DNA from: an uncultured bacterium
GTDB lineage: Bacteria; Bacillota_I; Bacilli_A; RFN20; CAG-826
Direction: 5' to 3'
Assembly: GCA_949292105.1 (NCBI GenBank)
Contig: CASEYK010000028.1
Location: 5,246-69,245 of the forward strand
DNA length: 64,000 bases
A model generated the notes under the pieces. That model was not told where the DNA came from. It ran no database searches and was given only the letters and a program-made list of their open reading frames with translations. Shown piece by piece: positions 1,116 to 60,786 of this stretch (within the stretch, counting starts at the first letter, position 1; each line of letters opens with the position of its first letter). Both the position numbers and the translations under genes were made by a program.

Positions 1116-2165
1116 ATGGAAAAAATTTTGAAAAATACTAAATATCGAAGAAACTATTTTACTAGCAAAGAACTGGTACCTTTTTATGATGCTTTAGTGG
1201 ATGCTATTTCAAAAAAGAAAAACTTTTTAGAAATTGGAGAATTACTAAATGATGTAAAAGCAGTAGATATTTCAAACGCTTTCGAAAATGTTTTTTTAGA
1301 TAATCCACAATTTTATTACTGTTTCAAAAATACTTTAGTGTTCATTCAAAATAATAGGTTAAATTTAAACTATCAAAACGAATTCACTGACAAAGAAGAA
1401 CAAAACATCGAACAAATAATCGAATATCTTGAAACAAAAACCAATGGTATGGATGAGTATAATACAGCGCTTTTTGCTTTTGAATTTTTAACTCGTTTTT
1501 GTGTGTATGATTCGCGAGCATTGGAAAAGGATTTATCAGAAAAATATGAAAAATTGTACTCTTCTTTTACTTTAAGAGGTGCTTTGATTGATCGAGTTGC
1601 GTGTTGCAATGGTGTTGCTTCAGCTTATTTATATATATTGTATAAATTAGGTATTGATTCGTATATTGCTCGTGCTTCTTTGCCATCACCAAATTCTAGC
1701 GAAAGATTGGAACATGTTTACAATGTCGTAATTATTAATGGTGTCAAGGTTAATGTTGATATTACTTTATCGATGAAAGAGAAGAATAGATTTTTTAGCA
1801 AAGAGAATAGAAATGTTTATTACACAACTCATATCGGCTTTGGTGTTAGCGATAAAGATTTAATTAATATGGGATATCGCCTTTATCAAGATCAAGTTGT
1901 TGACGTACCAACAGATGCAAATGAGAATTTTTCATATTTCATGAAAAATAATTTAATTTTTGATGATTTTCCTGCATTGCGTAACGCCATGTTCTCTATG
2001 TGTAATCGTCATAAGATGTTTGAATGCCGATATGATGGACATTTTAGTAGTCAAAAGCTTAGTGAAAATATTAGTAGGATAAAAAGCATTGTTTCTTGTG
2101 GGGGTATATTAAACCAATATGGAAGGTTCGTTATTTTAATAGGAGGAGAACTATATGAAAATTAA
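1116..2165 (+). CDS. Transglutaminase-like cysteine peptidase domain protein.
   Basis: The CNGVASAYLYILYKLGIDSYIARAS ... EHVYNVVII ... VNVDITL spacing fits a transglutaminase-like Cys-His-Asp core (C-x35-H-x15-D). Its stop overlaps the next start, so it is the first gene of a long + strand operon. Confidence 0.5.
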   Translation: MEKILKNTKYRRNYFTSKELVPFYDALVDAISKKKNFLEIGELLNDVKAVDISNAFENVFLDNPQFYYCFKNTLVFIQNNRLNLNYQNEFTDKEEQNIEQIIEYLETKTNGMDEYNTALFAFEFLTRFCVYDSRALEKDLSEKYEKLYSSFTLRGALIDRVACCNGVASAYLYILYKLGIDSYIARASLPSPNSSERLEHVYNVVIINGVKVNVDITLSMKEKNRFFSKENRNVYYTTHIGFGVSDKDLINMGYRLYQDQVVDVPTDANENFSYFMKNNLIFDDFPALRNAMFSMCNRHKMFECRYDGHFSSQKLSENISRIKSIVSCGGILNQYGRFVILIGGELYEN

Positions 2166-4344
2166 CAGCAACAGTTCAAAATTTCAAGAGGATTTATGGC
2201 AATATCTACAGTTATATAACAATATTATTATTGATGGTCTAATCACCGACAATCAACTCTATTACATTAGCAGTGAATCCGATAATTTAGATTTGGCCAA
2301 TGATGTTCTTCACTACATTGAGACCGCTTATAGCCAAGATTATATTATTATTGCTTATGATTCTGATAAGTCCGAAAAAAATCGCTTTCAACTTTTAACT
2401 GGCACCGAAATGGTAAAAGCAAATTTTAATTCTAAACAATTGGCTGAATTAGTGGATATTTTCAAGTTTGAAGGCTTGAAAGAAAACGATAAAGAAGAGT
2501 CGAGTTCGGATGTTGATGAGCTAAAACAAACTTTACAAAATTTTGATAAAAAATCAGAAGAAAATTTTGAAGAATCCCTTGAAATTAAACATGATAATTC
2601 TGGCCCATCGCTCGATATTTCAAAAATAATTTATGCTTCGAATAATATCACTGGTAAATTGCCATTCCTTTTTGTTTTTACTTCGACATCGCGTATGGCT
2701 ATGAATTCTGGGACTATTTCAACCATTTCAGAACAGATGACATATTCTGCTATTTTAAATTTATGCCGTGAAGATATTGGTGATAATAGGGCTATTATTC
2801 TCGTGAATAAAGCCAACGACTTACCTGCCTGGCTTGGCAGTGAGACAATCAATTTAGATATTAAGACACTCTCGATCGGTAAACCTAACATTGAACAGCG
2901 AAAACTGTTAGTTAAATATTTTCTGACTCTAACCGATAAAAATGGACAGTTTATTTCGAGCGGCAATTATTTAGATTATTACCGTCAAAATGATGTTGAA
3001 ACATTTACTAGTGATGTCGCGACTATTACGAGTGAGTTCACAAATGGCAAAATTTCCTTTTTGTTTGATTTTATGTCCATTTTTGCTGATACCCTTTTTG
3101 ACAAAACAACAAAAGAACCTTTGCCTTTAGACAAAGTTTTGTTCTTATTCGAAAATGGTGCCAATGCTCAAAATCCTTGGGATTCAAACGATGTCTACGA
3201 TAAAGTCAAACAAATCGAAGATGAGATTAATGCGACATTAGCAGGACAAGAGTATGTGGCTAAAAATATCCGTAAAAATTTAGGCACGGCCGTAACAGGT
3301 AGCAGAAGAATTTCAAATAAAAATGCTCCTCGCGCTGTATTTTTCTTAGCTGGTCCTACTGGTGTAGGCAAAACGGAAGCTACTAAGGTTATTGCTAAGA
3401 CTATTTTTGGCAGCGAAGACAAAATGAAGAGATTTGATATGTCAGAATATGCTCAAGAGCACACCGATCAAAGATTGTTTGGTGCTCCGCCAGGATATGT
3501 CGGTTATGATGCTGGCGGTGAATTGACCAATTATGTCGCTCAAAATCCATTTTCTCTACTTTTATTTGATGAAATAGAAAAAGCACATCCTAAAATTTTT
3601 GATAAATTTTTACAAATTTTGTCCGATGGTCGTTTAACCGATGGACAAGGGCGCACGGTTAGCTTTGAAAACTGCGTCATAGTGATGACGAGCAATGCTG
3701 GCATTTCTGTTGACAAATTTCAAAACAATGTTGGTGGAACTATCGTTGAAAGTATTGATCCAGATTTAGCTACCGCTTATGAAAAGGCTAATGTCGATTA
3801 TCATCTCGCAGATATCTCTAACCTCATCAAGCTTGAAACTGACAAGGCGCCTATTACCAGCAAAACCAATCCAAATATCGTGCTTAAAGATCCAAAAGAT
3901 TTTTATAGTCATTTTATCAAGTATGTCAACTGTAACCTTGAGTATCATTTTGAAAAAAAATTAAACCGAAAAGAGATTTATGGCCGTTTAGTTGACTCGA
4001 TTATTGTGTATAACTACATATCTCAAGATGCGATGGAAGTTATTGTTAAAAATCAAATTGAAAAGACCAACAAGCATTATTTGTCGACATATAATTTGAC
4101 TATTGATCCTTCAAAACAAGATGAACTGAAAAAGTTTTTAATCGATAAAGCCAATAACTCGACAACAAGAAGTCTCGGCGGGCGAGGCATCATTAAACTC
4201 ATTGACACTTTTTATGCTGACGCAATATCAGATACGATTTTGCAATTAGATTTGAAAAAAAATGGTCAACCAGTTGTCCTTTCTTGGGAAGAAATATCCG
4301 ATAACTATACGAAACAAAACAAATTGACTTTCAAATTGAAATGA
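2155..4344 (+). CDS. AAA+ ATPase with a ClpA/ClpB/ClpC D2-type module (residues about 390-560) and an unknown roughly 380-aa N-terminal region. No IGF/VGF ClpP-docking tripeptide is visible.
   Basis: Sequence FFLAGPTGVGKTE (Walker A) ... LFGAPPGYVGYDAGGELT ... SLLLFDEIEKAHPKIFDKFLQILSDGRLTDGQGRTVSFENCVIVMTSN is a near-textbook Hsp100 D2 signature. Confidence 0.7.
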   Translation: MKINSNSSKFQEDLWQYLQLYNNIIIDGLITDNQLYYISSESDNLDLANDVLHYIETAYSQDYIIIAYDSDKSEKNRFQLLTGTEMVKANFNSKQLAELVDIFKFEGLKENDKEESSSDVDELKQTLQNFDKKSEENFEESLEIKHDNSGPSLDISKIIYASNNITGKLPFLFVFTSTSRMAMNSGTISTISEQMTYSAILNLCREDIGDNRAIILVNKANDLPAWLGSETINLDIKTLSIGKPNIEQRKLLVKYFLTLTDKNGQFISSGNYLDYYRQNDVETFTSDVATITSEFTNGKISFLFDFMSIFADTLFDKTTKEPLPLDKVLFLFENGANAQNPWDSNDVYDKVKQIEDEINATLAGQEYVAKNIRKNLGTAVTGSRRISNKNAPRAVFFLAGPTGVGKTEATKVIAKTIFGSEDKMKRFDMSEYAQEHTDQRLFGAPPGYVGYDAGGELTNYVAQNPFSLLLFDEIEKAHPKIFDKFLQILSDGRLTDGQGRTVSFENCVIVMTSNAGISVDKFQNNVGGTIVESIDPDLATAYEKANVDYHLADISNLIKLETDKAPITSKTNPNIVLKDPKDFYSHFIKYVNCNLEYHFEKKLNRKEIYGRLVDSIIVYNYISQDAMEVIVKNQIEKTNKHYLSTYNLTIDPSKQDELKKFLIDKANNSTTRSLGGRGIIKLIDTFYADAISDTILQLDLKKNGQPVVLSWEEISDNYTKQNKLTFKLK

Positions 4345-16998: not shown

Positions 16999-17032
16999 AA
17001 CAATATAAATAAAATTTGGCGAGGTGTTTTCA

Positions 17033-20000
17033 ATGAAAAAGGTTTTTATCAGTTATGGTCGTGACAGTTTAAGTTTTTTTCCTACTCGCGTGAGCGAAGA
17101 TTTGATAAAAACGGAGCGGTTTGAGACCATTATCGATCAAAGGATGGAATGTGCTGTTAAGTTTGATGATTGGATTCAAGATAGAATTGATGAGAGCGAC
17201 CTCATTATCTTTTTCATGACAAAACATTCAACAAGGCGCCACGACAGCGTATGCTTGGATGAAATCGCATATGCTCGTAGTAAATCTATTCAAATCATTC
17301 CTGTTTTACTCGAAGAGTGCTCTCCGCCCCTTCTTGTGTCACGCATCAATTGGTTAGATGCTCGCGATTGTATAAATGTTGCTAATAAAACCATTATTGA
17401 AAGCCGATACAATGAAAGACTTAATCAAATAATAAAAGCTCTTGACGATGGTGGATTCGATGACGAACTCATTGGAAATGCTTTAAATTTGAAGAAAAAA
17501 CTTCAACCTTTTGACTTTTCTTTAATTTTGTCAGAAAGAAATGATTTTTTCACCGAAAGGCATGAATTTACTAAATTTTATAATGAATGGATTGAAAGTG
17601 ATAATTCGGTGCTTTGGATTGCCGCTAACGCTGGAAGTGGAAAATCGGTTTTATGTTCACATCTCGCCAACGAAGATGTAAGAGTAAAAGGTATTCACTT
17701 CTGTAAAAATTTTAGTACTGATACTGGTCTTGCTAGACGCATCATGACCCATTTAGCCTTCAATATTTTTACGCAGAACGAGCAGTACGGAAAGTCGCTA
17801 GAAGAGAATGTGGATTTTTCTGCATTTGTCAAAAATGATACAACAAAAGTTTTTTACGATTTATTTGTCAAATGTACAGCCCCTTTAGAGCCTAGCGAAC
17901 CATATATTTTGATTATTGATGGCTTAGATGAAGCTCCTTCGAGAGAAATTACTGAATTGAGTAAAGCCTTGTTTGAAAATCGAAATTTAATTCCAAAGTG
18001 GTTAAAATTTATTATTACTTCAAGGCCAGATTTGACTATCCTCCAATCCCTCTCTTTCCTTAGAAAATATGATTTGTTAAATAACAAAGACGATATATTG
18101 GCCTATATTCAACAAATATGTCTTGTCAAAAATTTAAATTTATCACAGCAAGATGTCGATCAAATCGTCGATTTGAGTCAAGGTAATTATCTCTATGTTA
18201 AAACTCTTTTTGATTTGAATGGCGGTTCCACAATTGATTTAGAAACATTGAAGAGTGGTATGTCTTCCATTTTTTCTATTAGTTTTTCGAAATTTTTTAG
18301 TGAAGAAGAATTTGTTCAATTGCCAAGACAATTGCTCCAAATTTTAGTTGCTGCGAAAGATTCGCTAGATGTCGAGACCATTTCTGAAATCATGGGTATC
18401 GGTCATTACGAATTAAACAATTTACTGAAAAAATTTGGGACATTACTCAATAGCAGCGATGCAAAAATCACTCTTTATCACAAGGCACTTGGCGATTGGC
18501 TTACCAGCCAAGATAATATCAATTACTTTGTTTCTTCAATTGAAGGTGATAAACAGATTTGCTTGTGGATTAAAAATAATCCATTTGGCTTCATGTTTAA
18601 TGACTATATTCGCAAATATGGTTTTGACCACCTCTTTAATACAGGCGATTTTGAGACTATCTTCTCTGCCTTAAAAAATACTAATCAGGAAACAGATGAT
18701 TCTCTTTGCTTGACGCTTGTACATAACGCTGTTCCTAATAAATATTCAGCGATTGCCAAGTTCATCTATGAAGGATTTAAAAATGATCCGAAAATTTTCC
18801 CAATTGCTAAAATAATAAGATATTTTGTCGAATATGGATGTTTTGCGTCCATGAGAAGCTTTTTTGCCAATTTTTTCATTCGCCAAAATAAAGAAATTGA
18901 ATGGATTATTCCTTATTCGGATTTAATCACCAACCGAATGCAGATTAAGATTGAAGAAGCGTATAAAACGCCTGAAGATTTGTTTAAGAATGCTCCAGAT
19001 GATGTTTATGCTGAATATTTTTATTATCGTGCCGAAGCATCGAGAGAACTCGGCAAATATAAAGAAGCCTTGAAACTTTATGAAAAAGCGGCGGAAACTT
19101 CTAGTAGTCCGGATCGATTTGCTCATTATATGTCGCTCATTAAAATTGCTGACATTTATTTTGTGTTTGGCGATAATCCAAAAGCGTTAGAAAAAGCCAA
19201 TAGTGTAGTGTTGGCTGATACCAATTTTGAAGGCAATTTTGCAAAAGAGCGAGTTCTTGGGCATATTTATAGAAGCATGGGCAATAGGCATGAAGCCATA
19301 CTGCATTACGAAAACGCATTAAACATCGCTAAAGACATGGGCAAAATGTACGCGATTGTTGAATCATACAATTCGCTTGCCACGGTTCTTGATGATGATA
19401 CCGCTGTTGAATATTTGTTAAAAGTTATTTCGCTCTGCAAAGCGCATGATTATAAATTAGAATTAGGAAAAGCTTATAGCGAACTAGGTAATATTTATCT
19501 TAAGAGAAGTGATATTAATAATGCCATCGAGTGCGGATTGAACGCTAAGCACAACCAAGAAACCGTCAAATATTTAGGCGGAATTTGTCAAGCGCGACGC
19601 CTTTTGATTCGATGTTATCTCCAGCTTCATGATTATCAAAAAGCCTTGCCCTTAGCTCTTTCAAATATCGAGGATATGCTCAATTCTCATTCGAGCCTAA
19701 AAACAGTGCTCAATGATATTCGCTTATATCATTTTTGCCAAAACGGGCTAGGCATATATGAACCTTTTGACGCTAATTTGTTTGCTCTTAAAGACAAAAT
19801 AACAGATGAATGGTTTTATCGTGAATTAGAAAAAAATACGATTGTCAACGCGGTTTTGAAAGAATTTAATTCGAGACCATCTTCTGATTATAAAATCGGA
19901 TACCACAATCAAAACCATACTGTTTCAGTCAATGGAGCCAAATATATTTTAAGAATTCCAGTGGAAGATTTTGATACAGTTGATATTCATGTATTTAATG

Positions 20001-20845
20001 AAAATGATGTGCTCAATTTCTTGGATGAAATTAACTTATCTGTCGATCATCCTCATTTCATTGGCAATGGCATTTTGAATCATACCATTGTGTCTGTTCA
20101 CTCCTTTATTGAAGGAAAACAGTTGCGAGCAACTATTTCCGATAATAAAGAATTAACTAATAATTTTGTGCTTCAATTCGCCCAAATTATGGCCACTTTC
20201 CATTCTTGTCGAACATGTCTTCCAAGCAATGATAACTTATATAGCACAACCAAATCGTTTTATGCCTATGATTATTCTTTTATTTCGAATCTTGTTAACA
20301 AGTGGTTTTTAAGATATCAAAATATGTACATTAAAATGGGATTTCCCACTGATATTAACCTCTTGCTAGCCAGTCATAAAGATGAAATTTTTGAGAACAT
20401 CACTTGTCTAAATCACTGCGATTTGCATCGTGGCAATGTGCTATTAAAAGACGATGGAAAATTTGCCATCATCGATTGGGAACTAACCCAATTTACTGAT
20501 CCTTTATACGACGTAGCCATTCATTTACACAAAATGTTTTATTCTGAAGAACAAGAAAAAATTTTCCTCGATGAATATTTTTCTCACTTTCAATACGATC
20601 GAGAATCTGCTACGCGACAGATTGAAAATTATCGAAGACTAGAAGAAGTTAAAAGTTGTGTTATCGATATAATTAGACTCGTACATGAATTTGGCACGAT
20701 GTCTAAAGAATCATATTTAAATGCTTGTGAAAAATACATCATGAAATTGAAAGTGCTAGAGAAGGAACAAGAGCAATATAAATCACCTTTTAAAAATAAA
20801 GAATCACTTTATCAATTCATCGAGAAAAAGTGGATTTTCTCTTAA
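17033..20845 (+). CDS. TIR - STAND (NACHT/NB-ARC-like) NTPase - TPR - APH/choline-kinase-like phosphotransferase fusion protein.
   Basis: - TIR: KKVFISYGRDS ... VCLDEIAYA gives the TIR FISY box and conserved Glu.
- NTPase: AANAGSGKSV is Walker A, ILIIDGLDEA is Walker B, and KFIITSRPD is the STAND TTR/sensor-1 motif.
- TPR: TPR-like helical repeats with ...YYRAEASRELGKYKEALKLYEKA...
- Kinase: HCDLHRGNVLL...AIIDWELTQFTDPLYDVA matches the APH Brenner HxDxxxxN and DWE motifs, and YILRIP gives the N-lobe Lys.
- Start: placed at ATG 17033, which follows GGCGAGGTG. Confidence 0.75.
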   Translation: MKKVFISYGRDSLSFFPTRVSEDLIKTERFETIIDQRMECAVKFDDWIQDRIDESDLIIFFMTKHSTRRHDSVCLDEIAYARSKSIQIIPVLLEECSPPLLVSRINWLDARDCINVANKTIIESRYNERLNQIIKALDDGGFDDELIGNALNLKKKLQPFDFSLILSERNDFFTERHEFTKFYNEWIESDNSVLWIAANAGSGKSVLCSHLANEDVRVKGIHFCKNFSTDTGLARRIMTHLAFNIFTQNEQYGKSLEENVDFSAFVKNDTTKVFYDLFVKCTAPLEPSEPYILIIDGLDEAPSREITELSKALFENRNLIPKWLKFIITSRPDLTILQSLSFLRKYDLLNNKDDILAYIQQICLVKNLNLSQQDVDQIVDLSQGNYLYVKTLFDLNGGSTIDLETLKSGMSSIFSISFSKFFSEEEFVQLPRQLLQILVAAKDSLDVETISEIMGIGHYELNNLLKKFGTLLNSSDAKITLYHKALGDWLTSQDNINYFVSSIEGDKQICLWIKNNPFGFMFNDYIRKYGFDHLFNTGDFETIFSALKNTNQETDDSLCLTLVHNAVPNKYSAIAKFIYEGFKNDPKIFPIAKIIRYFVEYGCFASMRSFFANFFIRQNKEIEWIIPYSDLITNRMQIKIEEAYKTPEDLFKNAPDDVYAEYFYYRAEASRELGKYKEALKLYEKAAETSSSPDRFAHYMSLIKIADIYFVFGDNPKALEKANSVVLADTNFEGNFAKERVLGHIYRSMGNRHEAILHYENALNIAKDMGKMYAIVESYNSLATVLDDDTAVEYLLKVISLCKAHDYKLELGKAYSELGNIYLKRSDINNAIECGLNAKHNQETVKYLGGICQARRLLIRCYLQLHDYQKALPLALSNIEDMLNSHSSLKTVLNDIRLYHFCQNGLGIYEPFDANLFALKDKITDEWFYRELEKNTIVNAVLKEFNSRPSSDYKIGYHNQNHTVSVNGAKYILRIPVEDFDTVDIHVFNENDVLNFLDEINLSVDHPHFIGNGILNHTIVSVHSFIEGKQLRATISDNKELTNNFVLQFAQIMATFHSCRTCLPSNDNLYSTTKSFYAYDYSFISNLVNKWFLRYQNMYIKMGFPTDINLLLASHKDEIFENITCLNHCDLHRGNVLLKDDGKFAIIDWELTQFTDPLYDVAIHLHKMFYSEEQEKIFLDEYFSHFQYDRESATRQIENYRRLEEVKSCVIDIIRLVHEFGTMSKESYLNACEKYIMKLKVLEKEQEQYKSPFKNKESLYQFIEKKWIFS

Positions 20846-23738: not shown

Positions 23739-25916
23739 ATGCTCGCGGTTGATATACTTATTACTCTTTGTCTCATTGTTTTACTTTTCTACGCGCTATA
23801 TGTAGTGACGAAATTGTGTGTTTTAAAACGCGGCGATAAGTTGTCTTATCTCAAAGGTTTTAAAAAAGGAAAGTTTGCTTTCATCTACTTTATTGCTATT
23901 TTTCTCTATTGGATTGGATATTATCAAATCAATAACAAATTAGATCAATCGTTTATAAGCGCGATTAATGACACCATTGATTTGGTTGTTTTAAAAATCA
24001 AGATATCAGGTATTTATTCATATATGGAAACCAATGCGTATTATGCCGCTTCCATGTATATTCTTTTTTGTCTTGTTGTCTTGAATGTCTTTTTATTTGC
24101 TTTTGCGCTGTTTGGACAAAGTATTGTTAATTTCTTTAAAAGAGTTTATTACACGCATGTTGCGAAAAAAATTTATGTTGTTATCGGATTTAATAAGAGC
24201 AATGAATCGGTGCTCAAATCGATTAAAAGTAAAAAATATAATGTTATTTTATTCGCAGAAGCTGGCAAGAACTATTTAGATTTCACATATATAAACAAAA
24301 TTTGCTATATCAAATATTTTGATAACACTGATTTTTATGATAAATTGTCCAAACTTTTTAAGAATTTTACAAATCGTAGCGTAGAAGTAATTATTAATAC
24401 TGGCAACGATGAAAAAAATATTATTCTCACCGAACAAATCAGCAACATCATTCTTGATGATAAGTTGACAAAATATACTTCTGATGTCGATTGTGGCCTT
24501 CGCGTCTATGTCTTTGGTGAGCCACAAAATGTTTCATCTTTTTCCCATTATGTTAAAAAAACAAATGGATGCGTTCATTATTTGAATAAATACAAAATTG
24601 TTGCGAATGATTTTATCGACAAATATCCTCTTACCCAATTTATGAATGATGATGAAATTGATTATAGTAGTGCAACGATTAAAGAAGATGTCGATCTCAA
24701 TGTTATTCTTATCGGATACGGGAAAACAAATCAGCAAATATTCCTCTCTTCCGTGGCCATCAATCAATTTATTACTTTCGACAGAAATCATCGTCTTGTC
24801 GATAAACCAGTTAATTATTTTATTTATGATAAAGAAATTTCTAATAACGAAAAAAACTTAAATCATGCTTTTTATCGCTTTAAAAGCGAATTGGATACAG
24901 ATCAAGATAAATATTTGCCACTCCCTCCTTTCCCTGCCAATGATAATTTCTTAAAACTAGACATTAATGATAATCATTTTTATGAAATGATTAAAAGCAA
25001 TATCCACCCGCAAGGTAGACGAAAAGCGTTTAATTACATCGTTATTGCTTTCGGTACCGATTTAGAAAATCTCGATTTAGCTGAGAAAATATGTTCTAAG
25101 TTAAAAGAGTGGGGATTATTCAATAAAACCAAAGTTTTTCTCAAAATTCGCAACGGCGAATTAGCCACACAAGTCGTCAATAAAGAATTTATATCGACGA
25201 GCGGATTCTATACTTTTGGCAATGAGAGCGAAGTTGTCTATGATATCGATAAAATTGTGACAGAAAAAATTGAATTGATGGCAATGGATCGACATCTTTC
25301 ATATAACATCAAAAGCAATATGAATTTAGAAACAGCCAAGCAAGTAATTGAAGAAGCGACGAAGAGTTGGTACGCGATGCATCAAATTCAAAGAGAAAGC
25401 AACATTTACGCGATTTTAAGTATCCGTTCCAAACTCCAGTTGCTCGGGTTTGATTATGCTCCAGTTAACAGTCCTCTTGGCGATGAAAGTGCAGCATATC
25501 AAAAGGCTTATGAAAAAGACGATCCGATTGTCTATGACGACACAAGAGAAGATGTCAAAGGTAAAAAAACCATTGTTTATACAAATGAACGAGTGAGCCA
25601 TAGCGTAAGAGAAAATCTAGCTATCTTGGAGCATCAAAGATGGAATGCATACATGATTTCCAAAGGAAATATTCCTTCAACTATTGAACAAATTAAAAAC
25701 AATGATTCAAAACGTCTAGATTTGAGAAGGCATGGCAATATTACTACTTTTGAAGGCTTAATTGAATTTAGAAAAATAATGGCCGAAGTCAAGCATCTCT
25801 CAGAAGAAGAAACAGATGTTATCCGTTATGACTATCAAATAATGGATGATTTAGTTTGGCTATTGCACAAAAACGGCTATAAGATTGTCAAAAAAGAGGA
25901 GAAAAAAGATGAGTGA
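23739..25916 (+). CDS. Polytopic membrane protein with two Rossmann/RCK-like cytoplasmic domains and a C-terminal RyR domain (paralog A).
   Basis: Four N-terminal hydrophobic helices. KIYVVIGFNKSNESVLKSI and VILIGYGKTNQQIF are GxGxxG-like. LEHQRWNAYMISKGNIP...RHGNITTFEGL matches the RyR HExW..GW.yg...H.c...eL pattern. It is a paralog of 26999-29383. Confidence 0.55.
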   Translation: MLAVDILITLCLIVLLFYALYVVTKLCVLKRGDKLSYLKGFKKGKFAFIYFIAIFLYWIGYYQINNKLDQSFISAINDTIDLVVLKIKISGIYSYMETNAYYAASMYILFCLVVLNVFLFAFALFGQSIVNFFKRVYYTHVAKKIYVVIGFNKSNESVLKSIKSKKYNVILFAEAGKNYLDFTYINKICYIKYFDNTDFYDKLSKLFKNFTNRSVEVIINTGNDEKNIILTEQISNIILDDKLTKYTSDVDCGLRVYVFGEPQNVSSFSHYVKKTNGCVHYLNKYKIVANDFIDKYPLTQFMNDDEIDYSSATIKEDVDLNVILIGYGKTNQQIFLSSVAINQFITFDRNHRLVDKPVNYFIYDKEISNNEKNLNHAFYRFKSELDTDQDKYLPLPPFPANDNFLKLDINDNHFYEMIKSNIHPQGRRKAFNYIVIAFGTDLENLDLAEKICSKLKEWGLFNKTKVFLKIRNGELATQVVNKEFISTSGFYTFGNESEVVYDIDKIVTEKIELMAMDRHLSYNIKSNMNLETAKQVIEEATKSWYAMHQIQRESNIYAILSIRSKLQLLGFDYAPVNSPLGDESAAYQKAYEKDDPIVYDDTREDVKGKKTIVYTNERVSHSVRENLAILEHQRWNAYMISKGNIPSTIEQIKNNDSKRLDLRRHGNITTFEGLIEFRKIMAEVKHLSEEETDVIRYDYQIMDDLVWLLHKNGYKIVKKEEKKDE

Positions 25917-26451
25917 AAATTATACGGATATAAAAGATAAATTGTTCAAGGATAGAACTATCGTCATCTGCGGTCCAATCGACAACGCTAAAGCGACATC
26001 AATTATTTTTTCTCTTTTAACTTTTGATTCGGAGAGCAATGACGAAATTCAATTATTCATTAGTTCTCTGGGTGGGGAATATCTCGACTCGCTTGCTATC
26101 TACGACACGATTAAAAGAATCAAATCGCCAATATCTGCAACTTGTATTGGATTTGCCAACGGATATGCTGCATTAATTTTGGCGTGCTGTAGTAAAGGGC
26201 ATCGATACGCTTTAAAACATAGTCAAATTAACTTTGAACAACCATATGGTGTAATTAATCAAGGCGTCAATCAAGAAACAGAAATACGCATTAGCGCCAA
26301 AGAAGCAGCAATCGAAAGAGAAGTGTTTGAAAAAATGCTTTCTGAACACACCGGTCAACCAGTCGAAAAAATTCATAAAGATTTAGAAGCCGGCATCACA
26401 TTGAATGTTGAAGAAGCGCTAACTTATGGCGTTATTGACAAAATCATTTAA
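25909..26451 (+). CDS. ClpP-family protein that is catalytically inactive (ClpR-like). It lacks the N-terminal axial loop and has a Lys/Arg-rich N-terminal extension.
   Basis: Collinear with ClpP (IYDTIKRIKSPISATCIGF...). The Ser position reads GFANGYAALIL (Ser to Gly), the His position reads NFEQP (His to Glu), and the Asp position reads LEAGITL. The start was set to the ATG at 25909, which follows a GAGGAG RBS. Confidence 0.7.
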   Translation: MSENYTDIKDKLFKDRTIVICGPIDNAKATSIIFSLLTFDSESNDEIQLFISSLGGEYLDSLAIYDTIKRIKSPISATCIGFANGYAALILACCSKGHRYALKHSQINFEQPYGVINQGVNQETEIRISAKEAAIEREVFEKMLSEHTGQPVEKIHKDLEAGITLNVEEALTYGVIDKII

Positions 26452-26466
26452 GTTGAGGAAATAGTT

Positions 26467-26988
26467 ATGGCCAAAGATATGAGAATTATCCTCATTAGTG
26501 GAGAAATTGATGAAAATGTTGCAATGGATGTCATTTTGCGTCTTTTGCTCTTAGACAAGCAATCCCACACTGAAGAAATTGTTATGTATATTAACTCGAG
26601 CGGCGGAAGTATTTTAAGCGGACTTGCCATATACGATGTCATTAATTACATTCAAGCTCCTGTCAGCACAGTATGCTTTGGCATGGCGGCATCGATGGGT
26701 GCCTTCTTATTATCTTGCGGTCAAAAGGGAAGAAGATTTGCTCTGGCGCATAGCCGCATTCTCATCCATCAACCATTGATTTATTCTTCTTCACCAGTTT
26801 TAAAAGCCCAATCATCTCTTGCTAGAATGGCTAAGCAAATTGAAAATAGCCGTCTTGAGTTAGAGAAGATTATGGCTAAAAATTTATCAAAAAGTTTTGA
26901 AGAGTTGCACCGCGACTGCGAGCGCGATAACTGGATGAGTGCTTTTGAAGCCAAAGAATATGGAATTATCGACAAAGTTTTAGAATAG
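26467..26988 (+). CDS. ClpP-family serine peptidase with an intact Ser-His-Asp triad and the roughly 22 N-terminal residues (axial gating loop) missing.
   Basis: Sequence GMAASMGAFLL (Ser), RILIHQPL (His), ERDNWMSAFEAKEYGIIDKV (Asp). It aligns end-to-end with canonical ClpP from position about 25 onward. A GAGG RBS lies 8 nt upstream. Confidence 0.75.
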   Translation: MAKDMRIILISGEIDENVAMDVILRLLLLDKQSHTEEIVMYINSSGGSILSGLAIYDVINYIQAPVSTVCFGMAASMGAFLLSCGQKGRRFALAHSRILIHQPLIYSSSPVLKAQSSLARMAKQIENSRLELEKIMAKNLSKSFEELHRDCERDNWMSAFEAKEYGIIDKVLE

Positions 26989-36368: not shown

Positions 36369-36435
36369 CATTTTGTTCACGCTTTAATATTGATAATATA
36401 AAAGTGGAATATTATTTATTGAGTGAGGAATAATT

Positions 36436-36918
36436 ATGAATCACATTTTGATTGCTTATTTTAGTCCCACTAAAACAACTAAACATTATGCTAGTCTAAT
36501 CCAGCAATTCATTGGTGGAGATTTATTTGAAATTGAGCCAACTATTCCATATAGTGATCAAGATTTAGACTGGCGTAATTCCAAGTCCCGTTCAAGTCTT
36601 GAAATGAATCGGTTAGAGTATCGCCCTCCCATCATTGACAAACATCTAGATATAGAACAATACGATGTTATATTCCTCGGTTTTCCGATATGGTGGTATA
36701 TCGCCCCGACCATTGTGAATACTTTTCTTAAAAAGTATGATTTAGCGGATAAAACTATTATTACTTTTGCCACTTCTGGAAGCAGCGGTATGGGACACAC
36801 TATTGAGAATTTAAAAAAGAGTTCTCCTCACTGCCATTGGATTGAAGGTAAAGTTCTCAATCATATAAGTGATGAAGAAATAAAACAGTGGCTCGCTTCT
36901 CTTTCAATTAAATCATGA
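36436..36918 (+). CDS. Flavodoxin-like FMN-binding protein.
   Basis: Sequence ILIAYFSPTKTTK is the flavodoxin N-terminal phosphate-binding loop. Size is about 160 aa. Confidence 0.6.
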   Translation: MNHILIAYFSPTKTTKHYASLIQQFIGGDLFEIEPTIPYSDQDLDWRNSKSRSSLEMNRLEYRPPIIDKHLDIEQYDVIFLGFPIWWYIAPTIVNTFLKKYDLADKTIITFATSGSSGMGHTIENLKKSSPHCHWIEGKVLNHISDEEIKQWLASLSIKS

Positions 36919-37406
36919 TTTATTATTCGACATATTCATCTCCTCTAGGAGATATTTATCTAGTAAGCGATGGACAATTTTTAACGCAACTTTTTTTCGC
37001 TGATCAAAAATTGCCTTCGAGCTACACTTATAATCCAAATCTCCATATTTTTTCTTTAACTATTCAATTTCTTGATGAATATTTTCAAAATAAAAATCCA
37101 AAGATTTTAATCCCAATTAAGCCGAGCGGAACTCAGTTTCAAAAACTAGTATGGAACATTGTTCAAAAAATTGATTATGGAACAACTAAAACATATCGTC
37201 AAATCGCTGAAGAAGTAAAACTCATTACTGGTCAAACTCATATGTCTGCACAAGCGATTGGTGGCGCTTTAAAGCACAACCCTTTGCTTATCGTTATCCC
37301 TTGTCACCGAGTTGTTGGATTGCACCATCAATTAGTTGGCTATAGCGGCGGCTTATCGCTGAAACGCGCTCTTTTAAAAAACGAGCAAATAATAAATGAA
37401 GATTGA
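36915..37406 (+). CDS. ogt: Methylated-DNA--protein-cysteine methyltransferase (Ogt/MGMT).
   Basis: Sequence IPCHRVVG is the active-site PCHRV motif. TYRQIAEEV is the HTH. The start overlaps the flavodoxin stop. Confidence 0.8.
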   Translation: MIYYSTYSSPLGDIYLVSDGQFLTQLFFADQKLPSSYTYNPNLHIFSLTIQFLDEYFQNKNPKILIPIKPSGTQFQKLVWNIVQKIDYGTTKTYRQIAEEVKLITGQTHMSAQAIGGALKHNPLLIVIPCHRVVGLHHQLVGYSGGLSLKRALLKNEQIINED

Positions 37407-37424
37407 TATAATATAAAAAGGAGA

Positions 37425-38213
37425 TTGAATATGGATAACATAAAAACGAAAAAGATTAGAACTTTTAACATAGTTATGGGTTCAATTCATTTATTGCAAG
37501 CGTTTGTAATGCTTTTTTTAGCTATTTTTGTCAAACAAATCGCTGATTTTAAGCCAGGTATTACTACAACTTATTTAGCGTACGAGCAAACGATTAATAC
37601 GCTCGTAGCGACGACAAAAACTCTTTTTGATTTACCATTTGGGATATTTGTATCGCTCTTTTTGTTCATCTCAGCATTTTTTCATTTTCTTGTCAGCGTT
37701 CCTAAAAAAGTGAATGATTATTACAATCGCGGATTAGAGGCAAACATCAATGTGTTTCGCTGGTATGAATATGCCTTATCCTCTTCTATTATGATGGTGC
37801 TGATTGCCGCTTTGTTTGGCGTTTATGATTTAGGCACATTAATTCTTATCTTTTTATTAAATGCATCAATGAATTTATTTGGACTATTGATGGAAAAAAT
37901 GAATCAAGGAAAAGAGAAGACAAATTGGCTACCGTTTATTTTTGGATGTGTCAGTGGCATTGGCGGTTGGATTATCGTCCTTATCAGTTTGCTTTCTTGC
38001 GAAGATCTATCTCAAATCCCTTGGTTTGTATTTGTTATAGCCGCCTCATATTTTATACTTTTTAATCTATTTCCTATCAATATGGTTCTTCAATATAAAA
38101 AGATTGGTAAATGGAAAGATTATTTATATGGCGAACGAGTTTACATTATTTTAAGTTTGGTCGCTAAAACCTTGCTCGCTTGGCTTGTTTTTGCGGGCAT
38201 TATGCAACCATAA
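37425..38213 (+). CDS. Heliorhodopsin, a 7-TM retinal protein.
   Basis: Near-collinear identity to heliorhodopsin 48C12 as recalled from memory: IHLLQ (His), RWYEYALSSS (counterion Glu), MVLQYKKIGKWKDYLYGERVYIILSLVAKTLLAW (retinal Lys in LVAK). Confidence 0.85.
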   Translation: MNMDNIKTKKIRTFNIVMGSIHLLQAFVMLFLAIFVKQIADFKPGITTTYLAYEQTINTLVATTKTLFDLPFGIFVSLFLFISAFFHFLVSVPKKVNDYYNRGLEANINVFRWYEYALSSSIMMVLIAALFGVYDLGTLILIFLLNASMNLFGLLMEKMNQGKEKTNWLPFIFGCVSGIGGWIIVLISLLSCEDLSQIPWFVFVIAASYFILFNLFPINMVLQYKKIGKWKDYLYGERVYIILSLVAKTLLAWLVFAGIMQP

Positions 38214-38334
38214 AATAGATTTTCTACTTTTAGTTGGATAATATTCCACCAAAAATATAGCGATTCAACTGATTGGATATGTAAAAAATATTTTCGGCTG
38301 TTTAAATTATTGATATGACATGGAGGTATTCACG

Positions 38335-38835
38335 ATGAAAACAACTTTAGGACAGCGCATTGCAGCGCTCCGCAAAAGCAAAGGATTAACTCAAGAAGAG
38401 TTAGCAGATAAACTTAACATTTCCAATCAAGCCATATCAAAGTGGGAAAACGACCAAAGCGAGCCAGATGTAGCTATGCTTTTAACTTTATCAAAACTAT
38501 TTGATATCAGTGTCGATGAATTGTTAGGCAATCCAGTTGAAAGAAAAATGGAAGTCAAAAAGAATCTTGATACTGACTTACTTTTACTTCAAATCAAAAT
38601 TCTATCGAATGATGGCGACACCGTTAAAATTCGCTTACCGCTAGCAGTTGTAAAAGCACTAGTTAATTCTGGTGCCGACATTAATTTAGGATCGAATTCC
38701 GAGGCAATAAAGAAGATAGATTGGAATAAAGTGTTTGATTTAGCGGAACGTGGAATTGTTGGCGAAATTATTAATGTGTCGAGTGCCGATGGTGATATCG
38801 TTAAAGTCGCAATTGATTATGAAGATAAAGATTAA
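38335..38835 (+). CDS. XRE-family HTH regulator with a C-terminal domain.
   Basis: Sequence LTQEELADKLNISNQAISKWEN. Start set to the ATG at 38335, which follows a GGAGG RBS. Confidence 0.7.
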   Translation: MKTTLGQRIAALRKSKGLTQEELADKLNISNQAISKWENDQSEPDVAMLLTLSKLFDISVDELLGNPVERKMEVKKNLDTDLLLLQIKILSNDGDTVKIRLPLAVVKALVNSGADINLGSNSEAIKKIDWNKVFDLAERGIVGEIINVSSADGDIVKVAIDYEDKD

Positions 38836-59901: not shown

Positions 59902-59931
59902 TTCATTAATTTTTTATTTTGTATATAATTA

Positions 59932-60050
59932 TTGTGCTTCAGGGTAAGGTGAAATTCCTTAATCGGCGGTATACCCCGCGAGTCTTAATGGCTGAACTTG
60001 TGCAATTCAAGTGGCGACAGTAAAGTCTGGATGAGAGAAGTTTTTTTCTT
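59932..60050 (+). ncRNA. Candidate cobalamin (B12) riboswitch.
   Basis: Sequence GGTGAAATTCC...GCGGTATACCCCGCGAG...AAGTCTGGATGAGAG matches cobalamin-riboswitch core elements (GGTGaAAnTCC and a B12-box-like AAGTCnGGA). It lies in the 5' leader of the ECF S-component gene, after a TATAAT at about 59924. Confidence 0.5.
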
Positions 60051-60082
60051 GCCCAAGCAGAAAGTAAAGGTGGTTATTCTTA

Positions 60083-60786
60083 TGGAAGGGTACAATCTTA
60101 CAAGATTTGTTATTGGGTGTCTTACCATTGTTATTACGGTTTTGTGTTTTATTAATCGTGTCTTTTTTAAACACAAGCCTCTTTCCACTAAATTTATAAC
60201 AAGAAGTGCTATTCTTGGAGCAATGTCAACAATTTTATATGTTGTTCCATATTTTCAATTCCATCTTCCTTTTTTTCCATCCTTTTTGGAATTTCATTTC
60301 GATGAAGTTCCAGCTCTCATCGCTTCGTTGGCATACGGACCTTTTTCTGCGGCATTTGTTATACTAATTAAAACTTTAATTAAACTTCCTCTTACTTCCA
60401 CCCTCGGCGTCGGTGAGTTAGCAGATTTCATATATGGTATTCTTTTAGTTGTTCCTGCAGGAATTATTTATAAAAAAATGAGAACTTTCAAAGGTGGAGT
60501 TCTTTCAGTTTTGTGCGGAGCACTTATTCAAACGCTCGGCGCTTCACTGATTACTTCATTCCCTATTCTTGATTTTTATATGCTAGTTATGCAAATTCCT
60601 GAGGAAAGTTTATTGGCAATGTGCCAAATCGCTAACCCAAAGGTAACTTCACTTGGATGGACTTTCTTTGGCTATGTCGCCTTACCATTTAACGCCTTAA
60701 AAGATGTATTTATCGTCATATTTACTCTGCTCTTGTATAAAAAGATGCATCAAATCATTGATAAAATCGGGCAAGAAAAAAACTAG
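60083..60786 (+). CDS. ECF-transporter substrate-specific (S) component, possibly the cobalamin-specific CbrT type.
   Basis: Six hydrophobic helices of about 230 aa. ALIASLAYGPFSAAFV is S-component-like. It sits directly downstream of the candidate B12 riboswitch. Confidence 0.5.

Follow-up and report, generated by a model that had tools for sequence, protein, structure and literature searches.

Does a heliorhodopsin (HeR) gene lying directly behind a gene for an O6-alkylguanine-DNA alkyltransferase (ogt) mark a link between light and DNA repair, or only an accident of gene order? What HeRs do is still under debate, and hypotheses are drawn mainly from gene neighbourhood; helper-rhodopsin operons include those of TfHeR with photolyase, of HeR with glutamine synthetase and of OcHeR with OmrDE. 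A conserved HeR-Ogt operon would have offered a new, testable HeR partner. The locus lies in a 64-kb stretch of DNA, referred to here as the window. Our analysis suggests that we are probably dealing with an ordinary TaHeR-like HeR, equipped with its own promoter, that has come to stand behind a coupled flavodoxin-ogt pair through a lineage-specific accident of gene order, and not with a conserved functional module. The host is an uncultured, low-GC (34%) bacterium with the standard genetic code. The features discussed below are the following.

36390-36398, + strand: candidate fld-ogt promoter, extended -10-like TGATAATAT within ATTGATAATATAAAAG, read from the sequence
36404-36415, + strand: copy A, GTGGAATATTAT, of a 12-bp inverted repeat, downstream of the candidate promoter and ahead of fld
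36436-36918, + strand: fld, short flavodoxin (Flavodoxin_4), 160 aa (PF12682, PRK07116)
36915-37406, + strand: ogt, O6-alkylguanine-DNA alkyltransferase, 163 aa (PF02870 and PF01035, TIGR00589)
37404-37412, + strand: extended -10 box TGATATAAT, in overlap with the stop codon of ogt and 19 nt upstream of the ATG of HeR
37431-38213, + strand: heliorhodopsin gene (HeR), 260 aa, TaHeR-like (PF18761, NF038020, matches to PDB 6is6 and 6su3)
38235-38249, unstranded: palindrome TGGATAATATTCCA of about 14 bp, 22 nt after the HeR stop, holding copy B
38238-38249, - strand: copy B of the 12-bp repeat, inside the palindrome
38320-38835, + strand: XRE-family HTH regulator (HTH_3, E 4e-19) with an uncharacterised C-terminal domain

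Identity of the three gene products

An initial annotation of this DNA had placed flavodoxin, ogt and HeR reading frames here on the forward strand; its ORF coordinates stand, and the three families are borne out by Pfam and NCBIfam. The HeR protein matches Pfam PF18761 with 322.5 bits (cut-off 26.7, E 2e-96) over profile positions 1-242 of 242, and the NCBIfam equivalog NF038020 with 310.2 bits (cut-off 100). When aligned to the structures of TaHeR (6is6, E 1e-65) and 48C12 (6su3, E 1e-53), its K246 (SLVAKT, which reads SLVAKS in 48C12 and TaHeR) falls on the Schiff-base lysine of TM7, E113 (RWYEY) on the counter-ion glutamate of TM3, and H20 and H85 on H23 and H80 of 48C12; all four residues are invariant in an alignment of 23 homologues. 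As reference numbering we assume K241, E107, H23 and H80 for 48C12 and K238 for TaHeR, in agreement with the chain positions in the alignment. The collinearity with 48C12 that had been claimed, including the retinal lysine, the counter-ion and both histidines, was confirmed by HMM and structure alignment with none of these residues missing. These results support the assignment of the protein as a genuine heliorhodopsin in which no chromophore residue is missing, and the gene is apparently intact and functional. By homology it would have the inverted topology (cytoplasmic N-terminus), bind retinal and run a long photocycle.

The match to TaHeR from a Thermoplasmatales archaeon (6is6/7u55) and to 48C12 (6su3) is full-length, about 260 aa, and includes the key residues and the SSS motif of TM3. 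Met218 is as in TaHeR, whereas 48C12 has Gln213; the source is bacterial and Acholeplasmatales-like, while that of TaHeR is archaeal; and the protein lacks the fused MORN or Zn-ribbon domain described in PMC8612252. Nothing in its sequence suggests a new HeR subtype. Its relatives form a continuous identity series from 74 to 95%, and the closest named one, judged by HeR, is an Acholeplasmatales MAG. The TaHeR-like type of HeR is common in Bacillota and Mollicutes.

The length of the protein depends on the start codon. It had been given as 262 aa with a gap of 18 nt to ogt, and both figures hold for the ORF opened at TTG 37425. The likely protein is shorter by two residues and begins 24 nt behind ogt, at ATG 37431: this start is probably the correct one, because the Shine-Dalgarno sequence (GGAG 37420-37423, or GGAGA 37420-37424, + strand) lies 7 nt upstream of the ATG, while the TTG follows directly on its 3' side. 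The 260-aa version is identical to database protein P0001, as called there, and an exact look-up of the 262-aa version returned no database record.

As had been observed earlier, the window contains no visible retinal biosynthesis gene. A Pfam scan of its ORFs, many of which between 1 and 32 kb have no Pfam match, found no carotenoid cyclase, synthase, desaturase or Blh family, and the annotation of an identical contig lists no retinal-synthesis gene in the window either. The HeR would have to obtain its retinal from the environment or through genes of the organism outside the window.

The fld product is predicted from its profile matches to be a full-length Flavodoxin_4 protein (PF12682, 199.9 bits against a cut-off of 24, E 2e-59; NCBIfam PRK07116, NF005501, 214.8 bits against 198). 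Ogt has the N-terminal Methyltransf_1N domain (PF02870, E 7e-10) and the C-terminal DNA_binding_1 domain (PF01035, E 2e-26), scores 89 bits against TIGR00589 (cut-off 46), and aligns full-length, over residues 1-157, with Mycobacterium tuberculosis Ogt 4wxd (E 4e-28). With the mycobacterial protein (4bhb/4wxd) it shares the two-domain architecture, the PCHRV motif, the Asn hinge and the GG(L/I) motifs. The acceptor C130 sits in an intact PCHRV (IPCHRVVG) that aligns to the M. tuberculosis enzyme; all of 121 Ogt homologues keep P, C, H and R, and 119 of them keep V. Where human AGT and M. tuberculosis Ogt read AARAVG, with the arginine of the recognition helix that we take to be the "finger" R128 of human AGT, the window Ogt reads MSAQAIG, with Gln113 preceded by a five-residue insertion. 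A defective enzyme was considered on this account and rejected, since glutamine is a subfamily trait found in 98 of the 121 homologues. About 95 of them also have residues at the insertion; judged from the alignment, both peculiarities are traits of the subfamily and not special to this locus.

Probable coupling and candidate promoters in the cluster

The stop codon of fld overlaps the start of ogt in an ATGA (36915-36918), as first reported, and ogt lacks a separate Shine-Dalgarno sequence, for which reasons translational coupling of the two genes is likely. A candidate promoter for the pair would lie at 36390-36398, inside a block also kept in L002, a related lineage; the list produced by a consensus scan does not contain this candidate. 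We did not find any regulatory RNA near the cluster in Rfam.

All three genes are close-packed on one strand, and no terminator was found after ogt or HeR, the consensus scan having returned only intragenic chance matches. The RNA segment 38205-38325 (121 nt) folds no more stably than its shuffled versions (z = +0.86), and the palindrome at 38235-38249, lacking a T-run, is not a terminator. This tight packing without a terminator makes some co-transcription of fld, ogt and HeR likely, and to that extent the earlier proposal of co-transcription stands; its obligatory form is weakened, because the spacer between ogt and HeR contains a perfect extended -10 box. Boxes of the form TGnTATAAT occur only three times in the 64 kb, both strands counted, and the one at 37404-37412 is probably the HeR's own promoter. 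It is kept in L002 and L092-94, and the same TGATATAAT stands at a similar distance upstream of a solitary, monocistronic HeR in the sister locus L003, whose HeR is 80% identical. Measured against the operon criterion of PMC11109279 (a neighbouring partner gene of the same orientation and a gap free of predicted promoters), ogt and HeR fit in adjacency and strand, and the gap of 24 nt holds the extended -10 box. Expression may accordingly be pictured as follows: fld and ogt would be expressed from a promoter near 36390, and HeR mainly from its own promoter at 37404-37412, with read-through from fld-ogt into HeR possible.

Gene order in relatives and in the wider family

The order fld-ogt-HeR-HTH is found only in L001 (100% identical), L002 and L092-94, where collinearity extends over the entire block, MatE through NmrA. 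In L002 and L092-94 the identities to the window are 93-95% for HeR, 85-86% for Fld and 86% for Ogt. The arrangement has been kept across two lineages that are about 14% apart in Fld and Ogt protein, an observation that counts against a mere accident.

Sister HeRs (74-84% identical) occur in five quite different contexts (L003/L095; L004; L005-7 with L013; L008-11; L012), none of which has an Ogt or a Flavodoxin_4 within 6-10 kb. A search for remnant synteny between the window and these sister loci found nothing in common near HeR except HeR itself. Homologues of Ogt drop from 99% and 86% to at most 48-49% outside the lineage, and those of Fld from 85-86% to 57% or less; the nearest outside relatives of Ogt (L096, L179) have neither flavodoxin nor HeR nearby, and those of Fld (L180-183) neither Ogt nor HeR. 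Because HeR has relatives of 74-84% identity and Fld and Ogt have none, the three genes have no single common history. One further ORF of the window, encoding 725 aa and lying in the upstream island 12 kb before HeR, is shared with L004 at 57% identity. A carotenoid link in L005-7 was considered and rejected, as the FAD oxidoreductase beside HeR there scores 111 bits against a CrtI-family cut-off of 587.

We then extended the comparison to 160 independent HeR loci with 1.23 Mb of flanking sequence, comprising 80 GTDB species representatives and 80 metagenome contigs (the best 80 of at least 558 genomic and the best 80 of at least 553 metagenomic loci); 125 of them have at least 1 kb of upstream flank. 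A tblastn search with 21 Ogt and 16 flavodoxin queries matched none of these 160 best-ranking loci within 6-10 kb of HeR. Clustering of 85 non-redundant loci (the 80 species representatives, four sister contexts and the window) recovered photolyase as the commonest neighbour (11/85), followed by DUF2177 and DUF1295 (6/85 each). PMC11109279 counts photolyase and DUF2177 as frequent HeR neighbours, and their recovery serves as a positive control for the survey. Neither Ogt nor flavodoxin is listed as a HeR neighbour in the surveys of Cho et al. 2024 (PMC11109279) and Bulzu et al. 2021 (PMC8612252), nor do they figure among the redox and two-component genes of the latter. In HeRs of this clade, in Bacillota and Mollicutes, the recurring neighbourhood is photolyase with DUF1295 and DUF2177.

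The initial annotation had taken the ogt linkage as an additional hint of a role in DNA repair and had proposed a survey of Ogt-HeR neighbourhoods. The linkage is absent from the five sister contexts, the 160 loci and both published surveys; it is not conserved outside the lineage, an outcome named beforehand as telling against the hint, which finds no support. Because the pairing is limited to one lineage and HeR seems to have its own promoter, the arrangement gives no real support for a link between light and alkylation repair. With a promoter that HeR probably keeps for itself and a partner confined to one lineage, the locus becomes one more example of HeR genes in highly variable contexts, as already known. 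Both published surveys likewise describe unrelated soluble-enzyme genes beside HeR on the same strand, in highly variable neighbourhoods (PMC11109279, PMC8612252).

Alternative readings of the arrangement

Common regulation of three otherwise unrelated genes is the first alternative to consider. The 12-bp inverted repeat occurs exactly twice in the 64 kb (36404-36415 and 38238-38249), both times in intergenic regions, and brackets exactly fld, ogt and HeR, which could mean common regulation and also counts against an accident; copy A may be an operator. The downstream copy lies within the 14-bp palindrome, itself a single match in the window where 0.08 would be expected. The XRE-family HTH gene, likely starting at ATG 38335 after a GGAGG, is a candidate local regulator; it comes next after the cluster and keeps that place in every member of the lineage. 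The three genes could then form a co-regulated stress unit, controlled by this regulator through the flanking GTGGAATATT(AT) sites. That the two spacers would share a 12-mer by chance has a probability of about 0.003, which is a rough estimate for a repeat found post hoc. However, the upstream copy is not palindromic, and although the core GTGGAATATT is kept in L002, both spacers are conserved overall between the two lineages, so that conservation of the motif tells little. The HTH gene is syntenic with HeR only inside the window's lineage, and this regulator is missing from the sister HeR loci. We hold a stress unit of this kind to be unlikely.

A second alternative is that HeR assists Ogt in a light-dependent manner, alone or together with the flavodoxin, the illuminated HeR binding Ogt and raising the repair of alkylated DNA. 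The one-strand packing, with its 24-nt gap and no terminator, would suit such a role, and there is a precedent in Trichococcus flocculiformis, where TfHeR likewise lies close to, on the same strand as, and binds the product of a gene for a direct-reversal repair enzyme, the CPD II photolyase (PMC9769723). Trichococcus HeRs are 56-59% identical to the window HeR and belong to the same Bacillota-type clade, and the frequency of photolyase, a direct-reversal enzyme, points to a DNA-repair theme in the family. A local interaction is conceivable even without conservation, because published HeRs bind the products of lineage-specific neighbours, as with photolyase (PMC9769723) and an ABC transporter (PMC11109279). 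The photolyase linkage, however, recurs (11/85) and its binding was measured (PMC9769723), whereas the Ogt linkage is confined to one lineage and missing from five sister contexts and 160 independent loci. The published lists of frequent HeR neighbours do not include Ogt, the Ogt of the window has a sequence usual for its subfamily without additional domains or uncommon motifs, and HeR has a promoter-like box of its own. Moreover, O6-alkylation is a lesion not induced by light, and Ogt, unlike photolyase, has no chromophore. This reading thus looks highly improbable. Very slight credence can be given to its evolutionary version, in which HeR would have been recruited as a light-dependent Ogt helper within the Acholeplasmatales-like lineage, with flavodoxin as a possible third partner and possible XRE co-regulation via GTGGAATATT; if true, photolyase would be joined by a second class of direct-reversal DNA repair in its reported relationship with HeR.

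That the three genes are a small mobile or horizontally acquired cassette is scarcely credible: inverted repeats at both ends, Ogt and Fld without close relatives outside the lineage, the variable, island-like HeR contexts of relatives, and conjugation and defence genes 12-35 kb upstream would fit it, but no transposase or integrase adjoins the cluster, no GC or skew anomaly marks a recent insertion there, HeR and the other two genes differ in history, and at 12 bp the repeats would be unusually short as terminal inverted repeats, with no target-site duplication seen.

Under the preferred reading, that of an ordinary HeR placed by accident behind fld-ogt, HeR would act as its family does, as a retinal-binding, slow-photocycle light sensor or helper, and Ogt would work on its own as a stoichiometric alkyl-transfer repair protein.

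The C-terminal domain of the HTH protein, which has no family match, was also considered as a conserved HeR partner. It stands 2.7-5.5 kb from HeR in five loci of the Izemoplasmatales type and is absent from the sister lineages; this candidate was rejected. In at least one of the five, the domain adjoins a tRNA methyltransferase gene that also recurs there, and its recurrence most likely reflects clade synteny.

Heliorhodopsin, flavodoxin and Ogt genes

36436-36918, + strand: fld, a 160-aa short flavodoxin (Pfam Flavodoxin_4, E 2e-59)
36915-37406, + strand: ogt, O6-alkylguanine-DNA alkyltransferase of 163 aa (Methyltransf_1N and DNA_binding_1; TIGR00589)
37431-38213 (probable start ATG), + strand: heliorhodopsin (HeR; PF18761, E 2e-96, whole profile)

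The heliorhodopsin proposed in the initial annotation, with its retinal lysine, counter-ion glutamate and both histidines, is borne out by the Pfam match, by the NCBIfam HeR equivalog (310 bits in the profile search, cut-off 100) and by alignment with solved structures. The protein is TaHeR-like and matches TaHeR (6is6) at E 1e-65 and 48C12 (6su3) at E 1e-53. In 260-aa numbering, K246 (SLVAKT) aligns with the Schiff-base lysine and E113 (RWYEY) with the counter-ion of TaHeR and 48C12, and H20 and H85 align with both conserved histidines of the solved HeRs; all four residues are invariant among 23 aligned homologues. An ORF of 262 aa, annotated as lying 18 nt past ogt, is indeed present, but its TTG start at 37425 directly abuts the ribosome-binding site, while ATG 37431 lies 7 nt past GGAG and yields 260 aa, as in the identical public gene call P0001. 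With this probable start the gap to ogt is 24 nt.

The neighbouring genes are likewise what they were taken for. The flavodoxin scores 214.8 bits (cut-off 198) against NCBIfam PRK07116 in the profile search, and the window Ogt, which keeps an intact IPCHRVVG active site, aligns from residue 1 with Mycobacterium tuberculosis Ogt (PDB 4wxd, E 4e-28). In the region of residues 103-113 its subfamily has the motif MSAQA(I/V)G, which follows a 5-residue insertion relative to human and M. tuberculosis AGT and places a Gln where those enzymes have the Arg finger. The fld stop does overlap the ogt start (ATGA, 36915-36918), and because ogt, as read from the sequence, lacks its own Shine-Dalgarno site, translational coupling from fld to ogt is likely.

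Putative transcription signals and repeats around the three genes

36390-36398, + strand: ATTGATA-type element TGATAATAT, 5' of fld; a similar element is also found 5' of the downstream HTH gene
36404-36415, + strand: 12-mer GTGGAATATTAT, just 5' of fld
37404-37412, + strand: perfect extended -10 box TGATATAAT in the ogt-HeR spacer, overlapping the ogt stop, 19 nt 5' of the HeR ATG
38235-38248: palindrome TGGATAATATTCCA, past the HeR stop
38238-38249, - strand: second copy of the 12-mer, 25 nt past the HeR stop, inside the palindrome
38320 or 38335 to 38835: XRE-family regulator, directly downstream of HeR

The suggestion that the three genes are co-transcribed agrees with their tight packing on the + strand, and since a terminator scan and RNA folding found no terminator-like structure between them or past HeR, read-through from fld-ogt into HeR is possible; the promoter-like box before HeR speaks against obligatory co-transcription. 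Counting both strands, the window has just three TGnTATAAT boxes, versus 5.8 expected from shuffles, and the chance placement of a correctly oriented one here is unlikely (a rough estimate is of the order of 1e-3). The same box lies at a comparable distance 5' of a solitary HeR in the sister-lineage locus L003 (HeR 80% identical), and is kept in L002 and L092-L094, contigs of the window's own lineage. Its position, rarity, recurrence and conservation together suggest that HeR has its own promoter, and that it was, or remains, a self-contained single-gene unit.

A minor alternative is that the two 12-mers, perfect, inverted and the only copies in 64 kb, could be candidate operators for the adjacent XRE-family regulator and so co-regulate the three genes that they bracket. 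However, the pair was noticed post hoc and may be due to chance, the upstream copy is non-palindromic, and motif conservation carries little weight because L002 conserves the two spacers as a whole.

The C-terminal part of the regulator (~38575-38835) forms a domain of about 80 aa with the motifs DGDxVxIxLP ... VGEIVNIxSxDGDxVKI; it has no Pfam or NCBIfam match and is single-copy in the window. In five independent loci of Izemoplasmatales or Mollicutes (L022:2888-3280, L032:160-522, L047:6328-6711, L072:771-1136 and L088:11905-12285) it recurs as a stand-alone protein of 120-130 aa, at 2.7-5.5 kb from HeR. As HeR loci of the sister lineages lack the domain, this recurrence is probably clade synteny.

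Gene context across heliorhodopsin lineages

Only contigs of the window's own lineage show the order lipoprotein, fld, ogt, HeR, HTH, NmrA. L001 is identical to the window over this arrangement, and in L002 and L092-L094 (HeR 93-95%, Fld 85-86% and Ogt 86% identity) the entire MatE-to-NmrA block is collinear, so that the three genes are not singled out. The next-closest HeRs (74-84% identity) occupy five unrelated gene contexts; the nearest in species-representative genomes (74-79%) come from an 'uncultured Acholeplasmatales bacterium' and a MAG.

Contexts of sister-lineage HeR genes
L003, L095: downstream of glycoside hydrolases and HTH genes
L004: adjoining an acetyltransferase and a TIR protein
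L005-7, L013: FAD and ferredoxin oxidoreductase genes, in convergent orientation to HeR
L008-11: amid radical-SAM, FMN reductase and nuclease genes
L012: unlike each of the other four

A tblastn search with all window proteins found no gene other than HeR common to the window and the sister loci near HeR. The two genes convergent to HeR in L005 (10745-13455), L006 and L007 (HeR 79-84%) encode a Fer2-FNR-type reductase and an FAD oxidoreductase of 515 aa from the CrtI/carotenoid-isomerase superfamily; the latter scores far under the family cut-offs and is, as it stands, not evidence of carotenoid synthesis.

We then surveyed the best 80 of at least 558 HeR loci from GTDB species representatives and the best 80 of at least 553 from metagenomes (HeR 51 to 79% identical to the window; 1.23 Mb of flank in total; at least 1 kb of upstream sequence in 125 of the 160). 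Searches by tblastn (E 1e-4) with 21 diverse Ogts and 16 flavodoxins found neither gene near HeR outside the window's lineage (0/160). With about one ogt per few-Mb genome, well under one copy is expected in 1.23 Mb, and there is thus no Ogt enrichment near HeR; given the thousands of species that carry HeR, a single lineage with ogt next to it is within what chance allows. Clustering of flanking ORFs from 85 non-redundant loci (80 GTDB representatives, four sister contexts and the window) recovers photolyase and other recurrent neighbours, which indicates that the method is able to detect them.

HeR neighbours recovered by clustering (loci of 85)
Photolyase, the commonest: 11/85
ABC ATPase: 10/85
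tRNA-U5 methyltransferase: 8/85
FakA/DegV: 7/85
DUF1295: 6/85
DUF2177: 6/85
Ogt: 1/85 (window only)
Flavodoxin_4: 1/85 (window only)

Cho et al. 2024 (PMC11109279) list ten frequent HeR neighbours, including photolyase and DUF2177; neither this list nor the survey of Bulzu et al. 2021 (PMC8612252) includes Ogt or flavodoxin. In Bacillota/Mollicutes loci (L027, L059, L062, L088 and others of L012-L091) photolyase, DUF1295 and DUF2177 recur as a group upstream of HeR, at a distance of 2-4 kb, and a FakA/DegV-type gene often adjoins them.

The histories of the genes also differ. HeR relatives form an unbroken series from 95 to 74% identity, while Ogt homologues in a 5.8-billion-protein collection fall from 99% and 86% to 49% or less, and flavodoxin homologues from 85% to 57% or less. 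The closest outside Ogt relatives (L096, L179) lie beside UvrA and tRNA methyltransferase, or acetyltransferase and DUF1848 genes, and the closest outside flavodoxins (L180-183) are flanked by radical-SAM and MatE genes. Both the fld-ogt and the ogt-HeR pairs are therefore lineage-specific, and, judged from these comparisons, no single evolutionary history is common to all three genes. No compositional anomaly was found at the cluster.

A functional link between HeR and Ogt, which the initial annotation had read from the linkage as a hint of light-linked DNA repair, is in our view very improbable. The linkage is not conserved elsewhere (0/160 loci and 0/5 sister contexts), O6-alkylation is not a light-dependent lesion, and the window Ogt appears typical of its subfamily, in which Gln replaces the Arg finger in 98 of 121 homologues. 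In its favour, photolyase, the commonest HeR neighbour in the clade, is likewise a direct-reversal repair enzyme, and there are reports of HeRs binding the products of genes that neighbour them in particular lineages, namely photolyase (Kd 21.7 uM; PMC9769723) and an ABC transporter (PMC11109279).

The earlier interpretation thus holds for gene identities and packing, but not for function. We consider it quite probable that fld-ogt is a translationally coupled bicistron, that HeR, expressed mainly from its own putative promoter, is a retinal photosensor or helper of the ordinary TaHeR-like kind, and that it lies behind ogt through an accident of gene order, peculiar to this lineage, in a variable part of the chromosome. 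The locus would then add a further member to the heliorhodopsin family, in a non-recurrent gene context. The window ORFs that were scanned yielded no member of a carotenoid or retinal gene family, as previously noted, and retinal would presumably be taken up or made elsewhere in the genome.

The wider window

The window is chromosomal (34% GC, TGA as stop codon), with an FeS-assembly (suf) operon, mnmG, rsmG, parA and parB downstream. Positions 1-32132, a long + strand gene run, look like a conjugative/mobile or defence island.

2155-4344, + strand: ClpB-like AAA_2 protein
17024-20845, + strand: TIR-NPHP3_N(NTPase)-TPR-APH kinase protein, 1273 aa
21874-23733, + strand: T4SS coupling protein
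25885-26988, + strand: two adjacent ClpP genes
within 1-32132, + strand: Sel1-repeat protein
within 1-32132: some ten ORFs, 300-1040 aa long, without a Pfam match

One upstream-island ORF is also present in L004 by tblastn: a 725-aa ORF (23739-25916) with no Pfam match has a 57% homologue at L004:8967-11126, after a TIR_2 protein and 3 kb from HeR, and in both organisms HeR lies near island-type genes. Further downstream, an FMN riboswitch (Rfam RF00050, 92.9 bits; 59931-60046) lies upstream of an ECF-transporter S component (59998-60786) and overlaps its called start. This component is presumably a riboflavin importer, and the organism may therefore scavenge flavin.
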